From assembly GCA_963774445.1 (NCBI GenBank), contig CAVZFC010000035.1, positions 5,470 to 69,469 of the forward strand: 64,000 nt of DNA, in the 5' to 3' direction. The notes under the pieces are model-generated. The model saw only the letters and a list, made by a program, of their open reading frames with translations, had not been told where the DNA came from and did not search any database. Below are positions 793 to 12,123 of the stretch, in pieces. Numbering within the stretch: position 1 is the stretch's first letter; each line of letters opens with the position of its first letter. The stretch comes from an uncultured delta proteobacterium. GTDB taxonomy: Bacteria > Myxococcota_A > Polyangia > Haliangiales > Haliangiaceae. The position numbers and the translations under genes are program-made.

Positions 793-3700
793 GTGGCTCG
801 AGAACCACAGGTTCCGGGGACGTTGGGGGTCCTGGACGAGCGTTTCGAGCTGCTCTCGCAGCTGGGGCGGGGCGGCATGGGCATCGTCTATCGCGCGTTC
901 GACCGCGAGCGCGGGGTGCAGGTGGCGGTCAAGACGCTGCAAAGCCTGGAGCCCGATCAGGTGCTACGGCTCAAGGCCGAGTTTCGCGCGCTGCGCGACC
1001 TGCGCCATCCTAACCTGGTCGAGCTCGGCGAGCTGATCGAACAGAACGGCAACTGGTTCTTCACCATGGAGCTGGTCGAGGGGGCGACCTTCATCGACCA
1101 CGTACGCGGCGCGGTGCAGCTCCAGGACTGGAGCGTCTCCAGCGAATCGATGGAGGGCAGCGCGACGGCGTCCGAGACCGAGGCCACGCTTCCGTCCGCC
1201 GACCGCGGCGCCGATCGGCCGACGGTGCGCGAGCTGGGCGGGCGAGCGCAGCAACCGCAGTGCGACTTGCAGCGACTGCGGAAGGCGCTGGCCGGGCTCG
1301 CGCGCGGTCTGGTCAGGCTGCACGAGGCGGGCAAGGTCCACCGCGACGTCAAGCCGTCGAACATCGTGGTCGCGCCCGACGGTCGGGTGGTGCTGCTCGA
1401 CTTCGGCGTGGTTGCAGAGCTGGCCGCCTCGCGCGCGTTCGAGCGCGGCCGGTTGATCGGCACCGCCAGCTACATGGCGCCGGAGCAGGCCGCGCGCGCC
1501 GAGGTTGGTCCCGCCGCGGACTGGTACGCGGTCGGGGTGATGCTGTTCGAGGCGCTGACCGGGCGGCTGCCGTTCGCCGGCGACCGCGACGACATCCTGG
1601 CGCGCAAGCAGGCGTTCGGCGCGCCGTGGCCGAGCGACGTCGCCGACGGTGTGCCCGCCGAGCTGGATCGCCTGTGCGCGCAGCTGCTCGAGCGTGATCC
1701 GGCGCGGAGGGCGACGGCGCCCGCGGTGTTCGACGTGGTCGGTGCCGATCGGTCGGCGGAGGCCGCGGCGTGGGTGCCGCCGTCCACGGAGGGGCGGTTG
1801 TTCGTCGGCCGCGCCGAGCAGCTCGACGCGCTGCGCGGCGCCTTCGCCGCCAGCCGGGAGCACGCGGTTTGCGTCTTCGTCGAGGGCGAGTCCGGAGTCG
1901 GCAAGAGCGCGCTGGTCGATCACTTCGCCCGCACCGTCAGCGCCGAGGACGAACATCTGCTCGTCCTCCGCGGTCGCTGCCACGAGCGCGAGCGCGTGCC
2001 GTACAACGCGTTCGATGGCGTGGTCGACGATCTGACGCGCCATCTGCTCGGGCGCCTGCCGTCCCGGGTCGATCGCCTGGTGCCCGACGGCGTCGATGCC
2101 CTGCTGCAGCTCTTCCCCGCGCTGCGAACGGTCGAGTCGTTCGCCCGGCGCGCCGGCGAGCGCCCGACGCGGTCCGCGTCCGAGGTGCGCCGGGATGCGT
2201 TCGCCGCGGTGCGTGCGCTGCTGGGACGCCTGGGCGCGCGGCGCGCGGTATTGCTCGTCGTTAACGACGTGCAATGGGCCGATGGCGACAGCGTCGTGCT
2301 GCTCGAAGAGATCGCGCGCGGTGCCGACGCGCCGGCCGTCTGCATCGTTGCCACTCAGCGCAGCGGAACCGGACGCGCGGTGTCGGCCGAGGTTGGCCGC
2401 GTTGCCCAGGAGCTGCGGCGGATCGAGCTGGGTGGGCTGACCGAGGCCGAGAGCTCGGCGCTTGCGGAGAAGCTACTGGCCGGGGTGGTGCGGTCGGTTG
2501 ACGCTGGCCAGATCACGGCCGAAGCGGGCGGGCACCCGATGTTCATCCGCGAGCTGGTGCACCACGCCGCGCAGCGCCACGCGGCGGGGGAGCCGTTGCT
2601 CCTGGACGAGGCGCTGCGCACGCGGGTGCGGGCGCTGGACGCCGACGCCCGCGCCCTGCTCGAGGCGGTCGCCGTGGCCGGCGCGCCGATCGCGCAAGAG
2701 ATCGCGTTCGCAGCGGCCGGCACGAGTCGCGCCGCGGTCGCAGCCAGCGTGCCCGCGTTGCAGTCGGGCCGACTGATTCACGTCCGCGGCGGGCGCCGGA
2801 CCGATCCGATCGAGCCCTACCACGATCGGGTCCGCGAGGCGGTCTACGTCAGCCTCGACGACGACCGCCGCCGGCAGCTCCACGGCGCCATCGCCTCCGG
2901 GCTGGAGGCGGCGGGCGCGCCGCCGGAGGCGTTGTTCGAGCATTTCGAGGCCGCTGGCCTGGCCGACCGCGCACGGCAGTACCTCGAGGCTGCCGCCGAC
3001 GCAGCGTTTGTCAGCATGGCGTTTGCGCGCGCCGCCGAGCTGTACCGCCGGGCGCTGGCCGAGGAACACGACCCCGACCGTCGGGCCGCGCTGCACGAGA
3101 CCCTGGGCGACGCGCTGTCGAACGACGGCCGCTCGGTCGAGGCGGCCGAATGCTACATGGACGCCGCGCGCGCCGCCGGCGATCCGATGCACGCGCTCGA
3201 CCTGCAGCGCCGCGCGGCCGAGCGATTCCTCATGAGCGGGCACCACCAGCGCGGGCTCGAGGCGGCGCGGCTGGTGCTGCGCGAGCTGGGCATGTCGATG
3301 CCGTCGTCGACGGCGCGGATCATCGCCGGTATCCTGTGGAACCAGTATCGCTTACGCCGCCACCCGCTGACCTGGACGCAGCGCTCGCCGACGGAGCGCG
3401 GGCGGCTGGCGGCCAACGTCTTCTGGTCGTTCGGCTCGGGCTTGTCGATGGTCGAGATCCTCCGCGGCGCCTACTTCGCCAGCCGCTCGCCGCTGCTCGC
3501 CCTCGAGCACGGCGAGCCGACCGAGATCGCGCGGGCGCTGAGTGGCGCGGCAGTCAGTGCCGCCATCACGGGGCGCGGCGACGAGGTCGACAAGCTGCTC
3601 GACGCCACCCGCCGCGCCGCCGACGAGGCCGACACACCGCTGGCGCGCTACTGGGCGCAGCACGCGCGGTCGGCGACCCTGTTCGTCCACCACAACGACT

Positions 3701-4563
3701 GGCGCGGCTGTCTCGAGCTGGTGCCCGAGATCCGGCGCTTGTGGCGCGAGTGCGGCCGCGGGTCGGGCTGGGAGACCGACGTCATCACCCACTTCGAGTG
3801 CTCGTCGTACCAGCTGCTGGGCGAGTACGGCCGGCTGGAGGGGCGCGTACGCGAGGCGGTGCGCGAGGCCGAGCTGACCGGCAACCTGTTCCTCGAGGTC
3901 AGCCTGCGGGTGCGCTTCGCCGGCCGGTTCCTCGTCCGCGGCGACTGGCAGCGGGCCAAGAGCGAGATCGACGACGCCCTCGCGGCGTGGCTGCCGGAGA
4001 GCGACACCTTTGGCAACCAGCGCGCCTGGGCGCTGTGGAGCATGACCCGGGTGGCGCACTGCTCGGACGACTTCGATCGCTTCGTCCCCGAGCTCGACGA
4101 CCAGTGGCGGACCATGCGCCGGTCGCTGACCGCGCGGGTCAAGCTGATGCAGATCGAGTGGCGCGCCACCCACGGCACCTATCTGTGCGGCAAGGCGCTG
4201 TCGGCCCGGCGCCGCGGCGCCGGCAGCGAGCACGCCCGCGCGCTGGGCGAAGCCGAGCAGCACGCCCGGGCGCTGGCGCGCCTGTCGATGCCGGCTGCGG
4301 CACCGACCGAGTGGCTGCTGCGCGCCGCCATCGCCTGGGCGAAGGACGATCAAGACCGCGCGCTGGTCGACACCCGCCGCGCCCTGCGCGAAGCGCGCGC
4401 GCATCCCACCACCGTGTTCGAGACCCCGCTGATGCTGCGCCTGGGCGAGCTCCTCGGCGGCAGCGAGGGCGAGGCGTTCATCGCCGAAGCCGAGCGCATC
4501 GCCACCGCCCGGGGAATCAGCGACTTGCGACTCTTCGCCGAGCTGGCGATCCCGACGCGCTAG
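793..4563 (+). CDS. Ser/Thr protein kinase with C-terminal AAA+ ATPase and TPR-like regulatory region
   Basis: N-terminal Hanks-type kinase motifs are present: G-loop GRGGMGIVY, VAVK, HRDVKPSNIV and DFG. The downstream Walker A (GESGVGKSAL) is followed by a long helical repeat region, which is typical of large myxobacterial STKs. Confidence 0.85.
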   Translation: MAREPQVPGTLGVLDERFELLSQLGRGGMGIVYRAFDRERGVQVAVKTLQSLEPDQVLRLKAEFRALRDLRHPNLVELGELIEQNGNWFFTMELVEGATFIDHVRGAVQLQDWSVSSESMEGSATASETEATLPSADRGADRPTVRELGGRAQQPQCDLQRLRKALAGLARGLVRLHEAGKVHRDVKPSNIVVAPDGRVVLLDFGVVAELAASRAFERGRLIGTASYMAPEQAARAEVGPAADWYAVGVMLFEALTGRLPFAGDRDDILARKQAFGAPWPSDVADGVPAELDRLCAQLLERDPARRATAPAVFDVVGADRSAEAAAWVPPSTEGRLFVGRAEQLDALRGAFAASREHAVCVFVEGESGVGKSALVDHFARTVSAEDEHLLVLRGRCHERERVPYNAFDGVVDDLTRHLLGRLPSRVDRLVPDGVDALLQLFPALRTVESFARRAGERPTRSASEVRRDAFAAVRALLGRLGARRAVLLVVNDVQWADGDSVVLLEEIARGADAPAVCIVATQRSGTGRAVSAEVGRVAQELRRIELGGLTEAESSALAEKLLAGVVRSVDAGQITAEAGGHPMFIRELVHHAAQRHAAGEPLLLDEALRTRVRALDADARALLEAVAVAGAPIAQEIAFAAAGTSRAAVAASVPALQSGRLIHVRGGRRTDPIEPYHDRVREAVYVSLDDDRRRQLHGAIASGLEAAGAPPEALFEHFEAAGLADRARQYLEAAADAAFVSMAFARAAELYRRALAEEHDPDRRAALHETLGDALSNDGRSVEAAECYMDAARAAGDPMHALDLQRRAAERFLMSGHHQRGLEAARLVLRELGMSMPSSTARIIAGILWNQYRLRRHPLTWTQRSPTERGRLAANVFWSFGSGLSMVEILRGAYFASRSPLLALEHGEPTEIARALSGAAVSAAITGRGDEVDKLLDATRRAADEADTPLARYWAQHARSATLFVHHNDWRGCLELVPEIRRLWRECGRGSGWETDVITHFECSSYQLLGEYGRLEGRVREAVREAELTGNLFLEVSLRVRFAGRFLVRGDWQRAKSEIDDALAAWLPESDTFGNQRAWALWSMTRVAHCSDDFDRFVPELDDQWRTMRRSLTARVKLMQIEWRATHGTYLCGKALSARRRGAGSEHARALGEAEQHARALARLSMPAAAPTEWLLRAAIAWAKDDQDRALVDTRRALREARAHPTTVFETPLMLRLGELLGGSEGEAFIAEAERIATARGISDLRLFAELAIPTR

Positions 4564-4677
4564 GGGCGGCGGGGGCAAGAGACTCGCGGATTGCGGTTGC
4601 GTGCGCCTGCGGTGGATCGTCGTCGCCTGCCGCGGGATACTGCCCCGACGGGTTGTCCCGTTGGGATCGATGCACCA

Positions 4678-6028
4678 ATGGATCTGTGGACCGCGCTCGG
4701 CGACGAGCTTCACGCTGCGTTTCCCGGAGGCCGCGACCTCCTGCCGGCGACGCTGCTCTACGGCGAGGACGCCGCGGCCCAGCTCCCCGCGGCCATGGCG
4801 CCCCACGCGGCGCGCCGCGAAGTGCTGGTCTACGCCGACCAACGCACGCGCGCTGCCGGCGCCGCCGCGATCGACGCGCTCCGCGCCGCCGGCTGGACCG
4901 TTCACGAGCGCCAGGTCGCCGATGGCCCGGACGGCGCGATACCGCGGTGCGACGAGGAGACCAAGCGGCAGCTCGCGGCGGAGCTGCCGCCGGCCGCGAT
5001 CGTCCTGGCGGTCGGCTCGGGCGTCGTCAACGACCTCAGCAAGTGGATCGCCGCCGAGGCCGGTCTGCCGTACGCGGTGTTCGCCACCGCGGCGTCGATG
5101 AACGGCTACGCCGCCGCCAACGTCGCGCCGTCGATCAACGGCGTGAAGTCGCTGTTTCGCGCCCGCGCCCCGCGCGTGATCGCCGCCGACCCGCGGGTCC
5201 TGCAGGGCGCCCCGCACGAGCTGACGACGGCCGGCCTCGGCGACGTGATCGCCAAGCCGGTGTCGACCGGCGACTGGCTGATGAACCACCGCCTGTTCGG
5301 CGAGAGCTACACCCAGAGCGTCGCCGACGTGATCGCGCGCGTCGAGCCGGCCTACCTCGATCATCCCGACGAGCTCGCACGCGGCGACCAGGCCGCCGTG
5401 CGCGGCCTGTTCGAGGCGCTGGTCTACTCCGGCTGCGCGATGACGCTGCAGGGCTCGAGCCTGCCGGCGTCCGGCGGAGAGCACCTGATCAGCCACACCC
5501 TCGACATGATCAGCCACGTGGACGGGTTCGACCACGACCTGCATGGCCGCCAGGTTGGCGTGTCGACGATCCTGGTCGCCGCGATCTACCAGGAGGTGCT
5601 CGCGATCGACCGCCCCACCTTCACCGCGGCGTGCGCGCCACTCGACCCCGGGTACTGGGGCGACCTCGCCGCGAGCGTGAAGCCGCAGCACGACAAGAAG
5701 CGAGAGTCCGCGGCCCGGGCTTGCGCGCTCCTCGCCGAGCCCGGCCGCTGGGACGCGCTGCGGGCCGAACTCGCCGCGATCTTGCCGCCGCCGGAGCGGA
5801 TCAAGGACTGCCTGCGCCGCGCCGGCGCCGCCCACCGCATCGCCGACCTCGGCATCACGCGCGAGCGCTACCTCGCCGCGCTCACCCACTGCGGCGCGAT
5901 CCGCGGCCGCTACACCTCGATCGATCTCGCCTGGTCGGTCGGCGTCTTGCCGGCGCGCGGGCCGGCGCTCGCCGATCACTGGTTGCTCGACCTGACCGCG
6001 CGCCGCGCGGCTTCGCCCCGGAGACGCC
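4678..6028 (+). CDS. sn-glycerol-1-phosphate dehydrogenase (AraM/EgsA, DHQS-like superfamily)
   Basis: Motifs GSGVVNDLSKW (GGGxxxD-type NAD loop), ATAASMNGYAAANVAPSI (matches G1PDH PTAASHDGIASP) and GDWLMNH are present. The frame continues without a stop to 6555 as low-complexity sequence overlapping the next real gene, so the 3' end is uncertain (possible frameshift or fusion). Confidence 0.6.
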
Positions 6029-6706
6029 ATGGACTTCATCTTCATGCTCACGCGCGACGATCAGACGGTCGAGGATTGCCTCGAGGTCTACGACGCCATC
6101 CGCCCGCTCGGAATCACCCACGTCGGCTGCAAGGATGTCGGCGTATCGCCGGAGGTCCTCGGCGAGCTGTTCCGCCGCATCCGCGCCGACGGCGCGACCG
6201 GCTACCTCGAGGTGGTGAGCACCTCCCCCGAGGCGTGCCTGCAGTCGGCCCAGGTCGCGCGCGATCTCGGCGTCGAGCGCCTGCTCGGCGGCACCGCGGT
6301 CGAGGAGATCCTCTCGATCCTGGCCGGCTCGGACGTGAGCTACTACCCGTTCCCGGGCGCGCCGGTCGGTCACCCGACCAAGCTCGGCGGCACGCCCGAG
6401 CGGGTCGCCGCCGATTGCGCGCGGTTCGAGCAGCTCGGCTGCGCCGGCGTCGACCTGCTCGCCTACCGGGCCACCGAGGCCGAGCCGATCGAGCTGGTGC
6501 GGGCAGCGCGCGCGGCCCTTGGCGGCAGCCTGATCGTCGCCGGCAGCATCGGTGACGCCCAGCGCATCCAGGCGCTCGCCGCGGCCGGGGTCGACGCCTT
6601 CACCATCGGCTCGGCCGCCTTCGACGGCTCGTTCTCGCCGCGCCAGGGTCTGTTGACCTCGCAGCTCCGCGCGATCCTGGCCGCGTGCGCGGCGCCGCCC
6701 GCCTGA
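6029..6706 (+). CDS. PcrB/GGGPS-family (hepta/geranylgeranyl-glyceryl phosphate synthase-like) TIM-barrel protein
   Basis: N-terminal FMLTRDDQT..HVGCKDVGVSPEVLGELFRRIR and YLEVVSTSPEA align with the PcrB motifs FKLDPNKDL..IIGGSDGVTEDNVLRMMSKVRR and LLEVSAIEA. The C-terminal AGSIGDAQRI...AFTIGSAAF phosphate-binding pattern is also present, and GC3-rich codon usage supports this frame. Confidence 0.55.
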   Translation: MDFIFMLTRDDQTVEDCLEVYDAIRPLGITHVGCKDVGVSPEVLGELFRRIRADGATGYLEVVSTSPEACLQSAQVARDLGVERLLGGTAVEEILSILAGSDVSYYPFPGAPVGHPTKLGGTPERVAADCARFEQLGCAGVDLLAYRATEAEPIELVRAARAALGGSLIVAGSIGDAQRIQALAAAGVDAFTIGSAAFDGSFSPRQGLLTSQLRAILAACAAPPA

Positions 6707-9467: not shown

Positions 9468-11168
9468 TTAGTCTGCAGCGCCCGGCTTCGTGCCGGGCGC
9501 TTCTTCGTTTCGGCGCCCGCGCTTGCGCCCGCGCCCGACGCGCGGCCAGACCAGCCATGCGAGCCCGATGGCGATGACGCACAGGAAGCCGAAGATGTTG
9601 CCGAAGCGGGCGAACAGGCCGCGGCCGCCGTCGAGCAGGGCGACGGTGACCAGGTGGCCTTCGGGTGGGTGCGGATCGTTGGCGGGGTCGATGACTTCGC
9701 TGATCGACCTCACCCGGCCGGCGGCGTCGATGTGCGAGGTCACGCCGGTGTTGACCGCGCGGACCATCTCGGCGCGTAGCTCCACCGAGCGGAAGACCGC
9801 CAGCGCCAGGTGCTGCCACGGCTCGCTGGCGCCGAACCAGGTGTCGTTGGTGACGTTGACGAGCAGGTTCGGGTGCAGATCGGCGACCCGGTGGCTGAAG
9901 GCGGGCAGGGTGTCCTCGAAGCAGATCAGCGGCACCAGGTTCCAGCTGCGGCCATCGGCTTCGAACGGAAAGGCGACCACCTCCTGGCCGGGCGACAGGT
10001 TGCCGCTGCCGCGGGGCAGGGCGTGCCGCAGCCAGGTAAAGGTGTCGGCGCCGGGGATGTGCTCGCTGAACATCACCAGGTAGTTCTTGTCGTAACGGCC
10101 GACGTAGTCGTCGCCGACCTCGAGCAGGGCGCTGTTGTAGGGCGGGCGATCCTGGTCCTGCCGGTCGCCGGTGAGGGCGCTGAAGATCAGCGGCGCGGTG
10201 AACGCCGGCTGCGGCTCGAGGCCGGTGCCCGGCCACGGTCGATGGCGGACGATGTTGTCGGCCGGCCCGGGGACCATGCCGCGCTCGAGCATGTAGGGGA
10301 AGCCGGACTCGGGCCAGACCAGGAGCTGGGCGCCGTCGGCCTGGAGCTTGGCGCTGGCGTCCTGGGTCTGGCGCAGGCGCGCGAGCTCGGCGTCGTTGTC
10401 GCGGGCGGCCGCGCCGTCGAACGGAACATTGGTCTGCACGAGGCCGACCTTCAGCGTGGGCGCGTGATCGCGAGCGGCGTCGAGCTGGCCGATGCGGACG
10501 AAGCCGTAGACCAGCGACGCGGCGACGACCGCCGCGGCCGCCGCGACCGGGATCAGACGGCGCCGCCGTTCACGCTCGGTGAAGAGGTCGTAGAGGGCGC
10601 CGCCGAGCGCGAACAACAGCGCGGTGACGCCGACCGGGCCGACTAGCTCGGCGATCTGGATCACCGCCGTCACCGGCGCCTGGGTGACGCCCAGGTTGAA
10701 GGGAAAGATCTGTGGCCAGATGGTCTCGAAGCAGACCATCGCCACCGGCGCCAGCAGCGCCATCGGCAACGGCGCGCCCAGGCGCTCGCGGCTGATCTGG
10801 CGCAGCCGGCGGACCGTCCAGCCGTAGGCCCAGTACAGCAGCCCCTGGTAGACGCTGAAGGCGGCCAGCGCCAGCCACGACAGCGCCCCGGGAAAGCTCG
10901 AGTAGCGGGACAACAGCTCGGTGACCCAGGGGAAGCCGCCGAAGCTGATGACCGTGCCGGCCAGCCAGGCGTAGCGGCGCGCGCGCTTGTTGGACGGCGC
11001 GCGATCGATCAGCCAGAGCAGCGGCACCGGCGCCAGCCAGGCCAGCGGCCAGAGATCGAGCGGTGGCGCGGCCAGCGCCCACAGCGCGCCCGCGGCGATG
11101 GCCACCGCCAGGGCGATCATCGTGGGGCGGCGCCCCCTCGTCGCGATCGCGTCGGCCCAGCCGTCCAT
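9468..11168 (-). CDS. lnt: apolipoprotein N-acyltransferase
   Basis: N-terminal multi-TM region plus a C-terminal nitrilase/CN-hydrolase domain (VWPESGFPY, ICFEDTLP, NVTNDTWFG). Confidence 0.85.
   Translation of the reverse strand: MDGWADAIATRGRRPTMIALAVAIAAGALWALAAPPLDLWPLAWLAPVPLLWLIDRAPSNKRARRYAWLAGTVISFGGFPWVTELLSRYSSFPGALSWLALAAFSVYQGLLYWAYGWTVRRLRQISRERLGAPLPMALLAPVAMVCFETIWPQIFPFNLGVTQAPVTAVIQIAELVGPVGVTALLFALGGALYDLFTERERRRRLIPVAAAAAVVAASLVYGFVRIGQLDAARDHAPTLKVGLVQTNVPFDGAAARDNDAELARLRQTQDASAKLQADGAQLLVWPESGFPYMLERGMVPGPADNIVRHRPWPGTGLEPQPAFTAPLIFSALTGDRQDQDRPPYNSALLEVGDDYVGRYDKNYLVMFSEHIPGADTFTWLRHALPRGSGNLSPGQEVVAFPFEADGRSWNLVPLICFEDTLPAFSHRVADLHPNLLVNVTNDTWFGASEPWQHLALAVFRSVELRAEMVRAVNTGVTSHIDAAGRVRSISEVIDPANDPHPPEGHLVTVALLDGGRGLFARFGNIFGFLCVIAIGLAWLVWPRVGRGRKRGRRNEEAPGTKPGAAD
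9478..9510 (+). terminator. intrinsic-terminator-like hairpin (GCGCCCGGC-ttcgt-GCCGGGCGC) followed by a T-rich tract
   Basis: The stem is a perfect 9-bp GC-rich palindrome followed by TTCTTCGTTT, lying between the convergent lipoprotein and lnt genes. It overlaps the last codons of lnt. Confidence 0.4.
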
Positions 11169-11175
11169 TGATTCC

Positions 11176-12123
11176 TCAGCCGGGGACCACCAGCGACAGC
11201 GCCGCCGGCAGGATGCGGAAGGTCGCCGGCAGCACGCCAGGGGTTTCGCCGTCGACGTCGAGCTCGATCAAGTCACCGCCCAGCGGCTCGGCGCGCAGGG
11301 CCTTGGCCCGCCGGTGGCTGACCTTGTCGAGGCCCAGGTGAGTGCCGTTGTAGATGCGCCGGGCGTGGACGATGAAATCTTTGGTGGTCAGATCGCCCAG
11401 GGCGACGACGTCGAAGCGGCCGTCGTCGAGCTCAGCCTCCGGCGCGATGTACATGCCGCCGCCGAAGTAGCGGCCGTTGGCCACCGCCACGGTGTTGATG
11501 GTCATCTCCACCGGATTGGCCTCGTCGTCGTCGAACACCAGGCGCACCCGCTGGTTCTGGTAGCGAATGCTGGCCCGCGCGGTGGCCAGCATGAACGACA
11601 GCCGTCCGCCCAGCGCCTTGGACGACTCGTTGACCAGGCGGTCGATGATTCCGCTGATGCCGAACGAGGCGATGTTGGCGAACACGCGCGACTCGGTCGC
11701 GCCGTCGCGGGTGGTGTAGTCGATCAGGCCGACGTCGATCCGGCGGGTATTGCCGCGCGCCAGGATCGAGGCGGCTCGCCCGATCTCCTTGGGCAGGTGG
11801 AGGGACTTGCGGAAGTCTCCGCCCGTGCCGAACGGCAGCACGCCCATCGACGCCTCGGGCGCTACCGGGCGGTCGCCGTCGAAGAAGCCGTTGACCACCT
11901 CGTTGATGGTGCCATCGCCGCCGATGGCGACCACGCACGAGGCGCCGGCCTCGAGCGCCTCGCGGGTCAGCCGGGTGGCGTCTCCGGGGCCCTCGGTGCG
12001 GACCTCGTCGAAGGCGACATCGCGGCGGATGACGCTGGAGATCGCGGGCCAGCGGCGGCCGAGGGATCCGTTTGCCGACTGCGGGTTGACGATCAGGACG
12101 GTGCGGCCGCGGGAATCGCTCAC
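11176..12123 (-). CDS. diacylglycerol kinase catalytic-domain family lipid kinase (YegS/BmrU-like)
   Basis: Motifs GGDGTINEVVNG and GVLPFGTGGDF are present. Start is placed at the GTG (VSDSRGRTVLIVNP); the long upstream ORF extension overlaps other genes. The gene lies 8 bp upstream of lnt on the same strand. Confidence 0.8.
   Translation of the reverse strand: MSDSRGRTVLIVNPQSANGSLGRRWPAISSVIRRDVAFDEVRTEGPGDATRLTREALEAGASCVVAIGGDGTINEVVNGFFDGDRPVAPEASMGVLPFGTGGDFRKSLHLPKEIGRAASILARGNTRRIDVGLIDYTTRDGATESRVFANIASFGISGIIDRLVNESSKALGGRLSFMLATARASIRYQNQRVRLVFDDDEANPVEMTINTVAVANGRYFGGGMYIAPEAELDDGRFDVVALGDLTTKDFIVHARRIYNGTHLGLDKVSHRRAKALRAEPLGGDLIELDVDGETPGVLPATFRILPAALSLVVPG

Follow-up and report, generated by a model that had tools for sequence, protein, structure and literature searches.

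A widespread gene pair in a Haliangiales contig, a G1PDH-like dehydrogenase and a barrel protein without described function, most likely breaks down a small phosphorylated sugar acid

Two adjacent genes in a 64-kb stretch of contig CAVZFC010000035.1 from an uncultured delta proteobacterium of the Haliangiales (the whole stretch is hereafter the window) encode a dehydrogenase related to sn-glycerol-1-phosphate dehydrogenase (G1PDH; gene 1) and a small phosphate-binding barrel protein (gene 2), and this widespread and conserved pair most likely breaks down a small phosphorylated sugar acid. A first inspection of the DNA (the original prediction) had taken it for an archaeal-type ether-lipid backbone module. 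The presence of two neighbouring genes on one strand and the family of the first were confirmed; the second gene belongs to a different barrel family from the one proposed, and the lipid role falls with it. Setting aside the false lead of archaeal-type ether-lipid synthesis in a myxobacterium brings to attention a large barrel family that has neither a Pfam model nor an assigned function. The tight and interchangeable pairing of this barrel with a G1PDH-like enzyme or with PdxA leads to the testable hypothesis that it supplies a step still lacking from the metabolism or repair of C4 phospho-acids.

The dehydrogenase gene and its missing stop

The open reading frame (ORF) finder began gene 1 at TTG 4591, which is too early; the ATG at 4678 is the start, because all close homologs open with MDLWTALG (Table 1). 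The product matches PF13685 (Fe-ADH_2; E 1.3e-19, 71.2 bits against a cut-off of 28), and its top NCBIfam model is NF002022, G1PDH (EC 1.1.1.261), at 170.8 bits, which is below the equivalog cut-off of 413. The nearest solved structures are 9h4x (E 3.8e-38), which we infer from the aligned sequence to be an AraM-like bacterial G1PDH, 4rgq (Methanocaldococcus jannaschii G1PDH; 1.1e-25) and 5fb3 (1.8e-23). Glycerol dehydrogenase structures matched at E 1e-6 or weaker, and the possibility that gene 1 would prove to be a glycerol dehydrogenase or a dehydroquinate synthase thus gave way to G1PDHs as the closest structures. The strings AVGSGVVND, ATAASMNGYAAANVAPSI and GDWL, named earlier as signatures of the family, are present in the 4591/4678 frame, and the GLGD, PASGGEH and LHG motifs and the metal ligands of gene 1 align with 9h4x and the M. 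jannaschii enzyme; we take GLGD, PASGxEH and LHG to be the metal and substrate ligands. Almost all homologs are 438 aa long with the same start and end as gene 1, and databases name them ‘iron-containing alcohol dehydrogenase’ or ‘G1PDH’. These sequence comparisons place gene 1 as a genuine member of the G1PDH/AraM (Fe-ADH_2) clade, in a separate 438-aa subfamily.

As had been noted, the frame of gene 1 meets no stop until 6555, giving a 654-aa ORF from 4591. The GC content at third codon positions (GC3) of this frame is ∼0.95 up to about 5940-6000 and 0.38-0.58 thereafter, and that of the frame beginning at 6029 climbs to 0.92-0.97 downstream of the same point. Because GC3 shifts to the 6029 frame, the tail from 5992 is non-coding read-through in the gene 1 frame, and none of the gene 1 homologs carries it. 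In the window, codon 438 is GAC (5989-5991), followed by a C and then an out-of-frame TGA (5993-5995), the site reading CTCGACCTGA (CTC GAC C TGA). Relatives 89-98% identical terminate at the TGA that matches window 5993-5995; the site reads CTCAGCTGA (CTC AGC TGA) in loci L001 and L002, CTCACCTGA (CTC ACC TGA) in L010 and ATCGACTGA (ATC GAC TGA) in L011, and homologous proteins finish with WLLS, WLLT or WLLA at residue 438, directly before the stop. Of the two explanations originally offered for the missing stop, a 1-bp error and a natural fusion, the former stands: comparison with relatives shows that one base has been inserted, be it through an error of sequencing or assembly or through mutation in the very recent past. 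That the two genes are naturally fused, or are joined via programmed frameshifting, into one bifunctional protein would account for the lack of a stop ahead of gene 2, but is highly improbable given that the genes occupy different frames, that the GC3 of the tail is non-coding, that the stop is present in close relatives, from which the window deviates by a single surplus base, that gene 2 is preceded by a GGAGA ribosome-binding site of its own (the spacer of which is conserved in L001 and L010), that the homologs are separate proteins of 438 and 221 aa, and that the gene order is reversed in many relatives.

The barrel family and its partners

Gene 2 had been described as matching PcrB and geranylgeranylglyceryl phosphate synthase (GGGPS) motif for motif. 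The strings quoted from it are present in the 6029 frame; the match to PcrB does not survive profile comparison, which places gene 2 in a separate phosphate-binding barrel family. PF01884 (PcrB) gave no match to gene 2 at E ≤ 1, whereas the positive control, a Bacillus subtilis PcrB sequence confirmed as such by this score, reached 354 bits. An hhalign comparison of a 53-sequence profile of the gene 2 family with the control gave a probability of 2.2% over 20 columns, out of register, with beta8 of the query placed on beta2 of PcrB. The GGGPS model NF003198 matched residues 150-197 only (E 0.0026, 16.9 bits against a cut-off of 247). The C-terminal 50-60 residues of gene 2 also match the His_biosynth, IMPDH, ThiE and NanE profiles of Pfam and NCBIfam weakly, and the stretch concerned is a generic beta7/beta8 phosphate-binding motif; the C-terminal phosphate-binding pattern noticed earlier is the only feature shared with PcrB, and HisA, IMPDH, ThiE and NanE match it similarly weakly.

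The AlphaFold2 model of gene 2 is a canonical eight-stranded barrel (predicted local distance difference test, pLDDT, 97; predicted template modelling score, pTM, 0.93). Foldseek searches with this model returned HisA as the top match, followed by TrpA, orotidine 5′-monophosphate decarboxylase (OMPDC) and ThiE, at E ∼1e-6 and TM 0.6-0.68, and GGGPS/PcrB was absent from the top structural matches. The family profile likewise showed no relationship to Escherichia coli UlaD (3-keto-L-gulonate 6-phosphate decarboxylase, KGPDC) in hhalign (0.5% probability). Residues D11, T13, G33, K35, G38, E61, P107, G140, R147, G172, T192 and G194 are invariant in the family, with D36, S64, H115 and D142 also conserved, and G172-S173 and T192-G194 are the predicted phosphate-binding loops. 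In all partnered barrels compared, D11, T13, K35, D36, E61, H115, D142 and R147 are identical; S64 and H115 are altered only in an unpartnered barrel on a Staphylococcus plasmid. The latter (L096; Staphylococcus warneri plasmid NZ_CP054016, 10519-11181) is a distant member with ∼30% identity and R in place of H115, and lies between copies of IS257 beside a protein whose annotation is HAD phosphatase of the YqeG family, with no dehydrogenase.

The family falls into more than 4460 clusters when grouped at 90% identity and into 794 at 50%, with at least 565 matches in species-representative genomes; its members are typically 221 aa long and ∼70% identical across phyla. Their public labels are inconsistent (‘hypothetical’, ‘4-hydroxythreonine-4-phosphate dehydrogenase’, ‘glycerate-2-kinase’), and literature searches on G1PDH with triosephosphate isomerase (TIM) barrels and on tetronate pathways found no paper describing the family or its function. 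By profile and fold comparison, gene 2 is assigned to a large, separate phosphate-binding barrel family without a described function, distinct from PcrB. PGAP calls the barrel ‘4-hydroxythreonine-4-phosphate dehydrogenase’ in L094, L098, L100 and other RefSeq plasmids even where no PdxA domain is present, a name that has apparently spread from PdxA–barrel fusions, and JGI labels many barrels ‘glycerate-2-kinase’ or ‘related to proFAR isomerase’; both sets of names are probable annotation errors.

Conservation of the pair was measured over 80 species-representative loci. An Fe-ADH_2 gene lies beside the barrel gene in 55 of them, on the same strand and within 300 bp in 38 loci and separated from it by one gene in 17; it is farther off in two and absent within the fetched flank in the remaining 23. 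The two genes are found in either order, often with overlapping stop and start codons. A stand-alone pair like that of the window is present in L001, L010 and L011 (Kofleriaceae or Haliangiales-type Myxococcota). The pair forms part of an operon in Alphaproteobacteria such as Mesorhizobium, Devosia and Labrys, which encodes an ABC transporter, the barrel, an FGGY kinase, Fe-ADH_2, a HAD-IIB phosphatase and a GlpR/DeoR regulator. In these operons the kinase separates barrel and Fe-ADH_2 and is XylB-like (333 bits, with the cut-off at 380), the transporter is a sugar system of the CUT1 type, and the regulator has GlpR-type proteins as its best matches. The recurrent partners of the pair are kinases, a phosphatase, sugar transporters and DeoR/LysR regulators. 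In a survey of 89 related loci for lipid genes, no prenyltransferase or polyprenyl synthase recurred near the pair, and no GGGPS/PcrB or other lipid enzyme consuming glycerol 1-phosphate (G1P) was recurrent in those loci or found near the pair in the window.

Several contexts are peculiar to single lineages. A PMT_2 glycosyltransferase of ∼684 aa (ArnT/PMT-like, dependent on polyprenyl-phosphate sugars) recurs just upstream of the pair in Kofleriaceae-type loci (L004, L005, L006, L014, L015, L018, L029, L049), often alongside an EamA transporter, and may reflect mere lineage synteny. In a Methylomirabilota locus (L003, 10001-20126), next after the pair come a HAD hydrolase of 276 aa, two aminotransferases of class III and an ABC transporter of the PotD/iron type, and in Kiloniellales and Pelagibius (L048, L061, L064, L084) the barrel occurs with DeoR, a PotD-like ABC transporter, glutamine-synthetase-like ligases, a short-chain dehydrogenase/reductase (SDR) and an FGGY kinase. 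These contexts hint that the substrate is an amino-polyol in certain lineages; readings based on a phosphonate or an amino-polyol were set aside, the suggestive partners being lineage-specific. A barrel–Fe-ADH_2 pair was also found on an 872-kb contig labelled Leptospira interrogans LS0056 (L057), with a barrel 61-63% identical to that of the window that clusters with those of Labrys and Mesorhizobium, and this contig may be contamination or mislabelled.

In other loci, from Actinobacteria and Proteobacteria, the barrel follows PdxA, in the arrangement LysR / DUF1537 four-carbon acid-sugar kinase–PdxA–barrel. The barrels of such DUF1537–PdxA loci are 60-65% identical to that of the window in Arthrobacter (where a HAD-IIB phosphatase comes next) and Streptomyces, and 40-45% identical in Rhizobium, Bradyrhizobium, Gemmobacter and Roseateles, the Bradyrhizobium barrel being fused to a cupin. 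In Gluconobacter the arrangement is LysR / PdxA–barrel–cupin, with the kinase absent. An acid-sugar kinase and a dehydrogenase both adjoin the barrel in L055, L085, L094, L095, L099 and L100; the FGGY–Fe-ADH_2 operons supply a kinase and a dehydrogenase of another kind, and the window pair is without a kinase. Fused proteins were seen that join the barrel to PdxA, methylglyoxal synthase, a cupin or a Ser/Thr dehydratase. The methylglyoxal synthase fusion (P0279, 360 aa; L090-L092, marine metagenome and metagenome-assembled genome contigs) occurs on 20 contigs, with no dehydrogenase gene adjacent, and its synthase part is genuine (NF003559, 145 bits against a cut-off of 84). A further protein (P0288, 537 aa) joins the barrel to a pyridoxal phosphate-dependent serine/threonine dehydratase (NF006094, 426 bits) and fits none of the models considered below. 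In a rough identity tree, the deepest split has PdxA-linked barrels on each side, and the barrels linked to Fe-ADH_2 group together as a derived clade. The barrel is the constant element of these arrangements, because the kinase (DUF1537 or FGGY) and the metal-dependent NAD dehydrogenase (PdxA or G1PDH-like) both vary, and the two kinases, like the two dehydrogenases, look like non-homologous replacements of each other.

Proposed function and competing explanations

The general model that we favour, with a probability of roughly 0.55, is that the dehydrogenase makes a keto-phosphate, the keto group lying beside a CH2-O-phosphate, and that the barrel processes it; the substrate, the barrel reaction and the physiological role are those that we infer. 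The dehydrogenase would oxidise the D-configured hydroxyl adjacent to the CH2-O-phosphate of a small phosphorylated substrate, with the regiochemistry of the conversion of G1P to dihydroxyacetone phosphate (DHAP), and the barrel would process the resulting 3-substituted 2-keto-phosphate via an enediolate, stabilising the DHAP enediolate as CO2 or another one- or two-carbon unit departs and leaving DHAP as the product. A hydroxyl in D configuration beside a CH2-O-phosphate is what G1PDH and the enzymes of the PdxA family alike oxidise, on substrates that comprise 4-phospho-D-tetronates, 4-phosphohydroxythreonine and sn-G1P, and sn-G1P and the 4-phospho-D-tetronates have the same D configuration at the carbon of the oxidised hydroxyl. 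DHAP as the product of the barrel fits because methylglyoxal synthase, with which the barrel is fused, consumes DHAP and PdxA2-type enzymes produce it.

In a more specific version, which is put forward tentatively, the dehydrogenase would convert 4-phospho-D-erythronate or 4-phospho-D-threonate to 3-oxo-tetronate 4-phosphate and the barrel would decarboxylate the latter to DHAP and CO2, so that the pair would be a non-homologous equivalent of the PdxA2 or OtnC step. As described in two sources, 3-oxo-tetronate 4-phosphate is decarboxylated to DHAP in DUF1537 pathways either within PdxA2 or by the dedicated enzyme OtnC, and the tetronate pathways of this kind are under DeoR-type regulators (PMC12994016, PMC10580937). 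In Alphaproteobacteria, the cassette would work within a catabolic operon with its transporter, FGGY kinase, HAD phosphatase and DeoR regulator. The stand-alone pair of Myxococcota would act on an endogenous phospho-metabolite, because no kinase or transporter adjoins it, for example in the removal of 4-phosphoerythronate, a toxic side product of glyceraldehyde-3-phosphate dehydrogenase that B. subtilis and eukaryotes clear with dedicated enzymes (PMC6449344). Taken to its full extent, the proposal would make the new barrel family a decarboxylase or C-C lyase that frees DHAP, the subfamily labelled ‘bacterial G1PDH ortholog’ a set of dehydrogenases for 4-phospho-tetronate (or a similar substrate) that have displaced PdxA, and the Myxococcota pair a repair route from 4-phosphoerythronate to DHAP; this is possible, and speculative.

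A number of observations weigh against the favoured model. The window pair has no adjacent kinase, transporter or regulator. Characterised PdxA2 enzymes decarboxylate unaided, and a separate decarboxylase beside PdxA is not obviously needed. The CUT1-type transporter and XylB-like kinase of Alphaproteobacteria would suit a neutral polyol or ketose better than an acid sugar, and the HAD phosphatase and cupin partners are left unexplained. The structural resemblance of the barrel to enediolate enzymes is marginal; its beta3 reads LEVVS, and the D-x-K-x-x-D motif of the OMPDC suprafamily is absent. An isomerase role for the barrel, moreover, fits most of the same data.

Such a role belongs to an explanation that we regard as unlikely though the strongest of the competitors, in which gene 1 is a true G1P/DHAP dehydrogenase and the barrel a triose-phosphate isomerase in the manner of TPI or HisA, or else a DHAP-dependent aldolase. 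As an isomerase, it could act on DHAP and glyceraldehyde 3-phosphate or on an amino-ketone analogue. The cassette would in this case be a shunt for glycerol phosphate or triose phosphate, serving for instance the use of G1P scavenged from archaeal lipids, and uptake of G1P by bacteria is on record (PMC12718374). Every partner enzyme (G1PDH-like, PdxA2-type, methylglyoxal synthase) touches DHAP, the top matches of the regulator are GlpR-type, and HisA, an Amadori isomerase, is both among the weak sequence matches of the barrel and its top Foldseek match; however, gene 1 lies far under the G1PDH equivalog threshold, a kinase and G1PDH would suffice to yield DHAP without the barrel, and the substrates of DUF1537 kinases and PdxA are C4 acids, not trioses. 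An ordinary TpiA is also expected in organisms that bear the pair, and where it is present a second isomerase tightly tied to the dehydrogenase would have no clear purpose.

Somewhat less likely again is the catabolism of a neutral tetritol or pentitol, in which an FGGY kinase would form the polyol phosphate, the G1PDH-like enzyme would oxidise it to a ketose 1-phosphate, and the barrel would either epimerise or isomerise the latter or cleave it, in the manner of 3-hexulose-6-phosphate synthase (HPS) or an aldolase, to DHAP plus formaldehyde or glycolaldehyde. The XylB-like FGGY kinase, CUT1 sugar ABC transporter and DeoR regulator of the alphaproteobacterial operons agree with this, as do the contexts with an SDR and an FGGY kinase in Kiloniellales. 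The similarity of the barrel to HPS is marginal, though, and DUF1537 kinases and PdxA, both of which require a substrate with a carboxylate, precede barrels that are 60-65% identical to that of the window and have the same candidate catalytic residues.

The ether-lipid module of the original prediction, in which gene 1 would make G1P and gene 2, as a PcrB/GGGPS-type prenyltransferase, would add a polyprenyl chain, is largely refuted: it has in its favour the family of gene 1, the ∼225-aa phosphate-binding TIM barrel that gene 2 shares in outline with PcrB, the weak GGGPS match at residues 150-197 and the precedent of AraM with PcrB in B. subtilis (PMC6431249), but gene 2 fails against the PcrB and GGGPS profiles, prenyl-chain genes do not recur in the 89 loci, PdxA can take the place of the G1PDH-like gene, and the barrel also partners DUF1537 kinases, FGGY kinases and methylglyoxal synthase. 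What remains is a widespread, testable two-enzyme cassette. Bacterial G1PDH homologs serve as markers in phylogenies that address the ‘lipid divide’ and the membrane of the last universal common ancestor (PMC6431249). If a major bacterial G1PDH subfamily does serve sugar-acid catabolism, lipid-divide trees would have to be read differently, and a bacterial G1PDH homolog would be no evidence of a capacity for archaeal-type lipids.

Genomic surroundings and comparison with known systems

The neighbours of the pair in the window are unrelated to it and comprise a protein that combines a Ser/Thr kinase with a STAND ATPase, secreted proteins, Lnt, a lipid kinase of the YegS type and a methylase of the Eco57I type (Table 1). 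L004 and L009 each have, beside the pair and on the opposite strand, a kinase similar to the protein directly upstream of gene 1. The Eco57I/N6_Mtase methylase probably begins near 12.2 kb. No tRNA or tmRNA genes, and no Rfam families at gathering threshold, were found in the whole window.

Table 1. Positions of the pair and of neighbouring features in the 64-kb window
Feature	Position	Strand	Remarks
Protein of 1256 aa directly upstream of gene 1	793-4563	+	N-terminal Ser/Thr kinase, AAA_16/NACHT-type STAND ATPase, long helical-repeat tail
Gene 1	4678..5991	+	438 codons, MDLWTALG...ADHWLLD; G1PDH/AraM-like Fe-ADH_2 metal- and NAD(P)-dependent dehydrogenase
Frameshift site	5989..5995	+	GACC+TGA; one surplus base, C at 5991/5992 or G at 5989
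Spurious read-through tail of gene 1 frame	5992..6555	+	Low-complexity Arg/Pro/Ala; out-of-frame overlap with gene 2
Ribosome-binding site	6020..6024	+	GGAGA, 4 nt 5′ of the gene 2 ATG
Gene 2	6029..6706	+	225 aa, phosphate-binding (beta/alpha)8-barrel; family without Pfam model
Lnt	9468-11168	-	
YegS/DAGK_cat-type lipid kinase	11176-12123	-	315 aa; 89% identical to L001 gene; follows Lnt
ORF of 966 aa	10987-13887	+	N-terminal ∼390 aa a shadow ORF over the lipid kinase gene

Gene 1 is homologous to AraM/EgsA, with which it shares the Fe-ADH_2 domain, the top structure matches and the PASGGEH and GLGD motifs, and it differs from them in forming its own 438-aa subfamily, scoring 171 bits on a G1PDH equivalog model that requires 413. 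The B. subtilis araM operon includes the FGGY kinase gene araB, the HAD phosphatase gene araL and an ABC transporter. Gene 2 resembles PcrB in being a small phosphate-binding TIM barrel; it has no detectable profile relationship or preferential fold relationship to PcrB/GGGPS and no associated prenyl-chain genes. In the B. subtilis precedent the G1PDH AraM is accompanied by PcrB, a heptaprenylglyceryl phosphate synthase (PMC6431249). The corresponding enzymes of archaea are EgsA and GGGPS. With the enediolate enzymes of the OMPDC suprafamily (HPS, UlaD/KGPDC), the barrel shares neither a profile relationship nor the beta3 motif.

The closest parallel in pathway logic is provided by the DUF1537 kinase–PdxA2 and OtnK–OtnC pathways, which serve D-threonate, D-erythronate and L-threonate (Zhang et al., 2016, PNAS, as cited in PMC12994016 and PMC10580937). 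The dehydrogenase of the window is G1PDH-like rather than a PdxA and is without a kinase, and the putative decarboxylase would be a new TIM barrel, unlike OtnC, which has a class II aldolase fold. We know of no description of a role for the barrel beside PdxA. The proposed route would nevertheless follow the DUF1537–PdxA2/OtnC sequence of phosphorylation by a kinase, NAD-dependent oxidation beside a CH2-O-phosphate and loss of CO2 to give DHAP, and, as in the DUF1537–PdxA pathways, LysR or DeoR regulators are present and members of the barrel family directly follow DUF1537–PdxA in many genomes.

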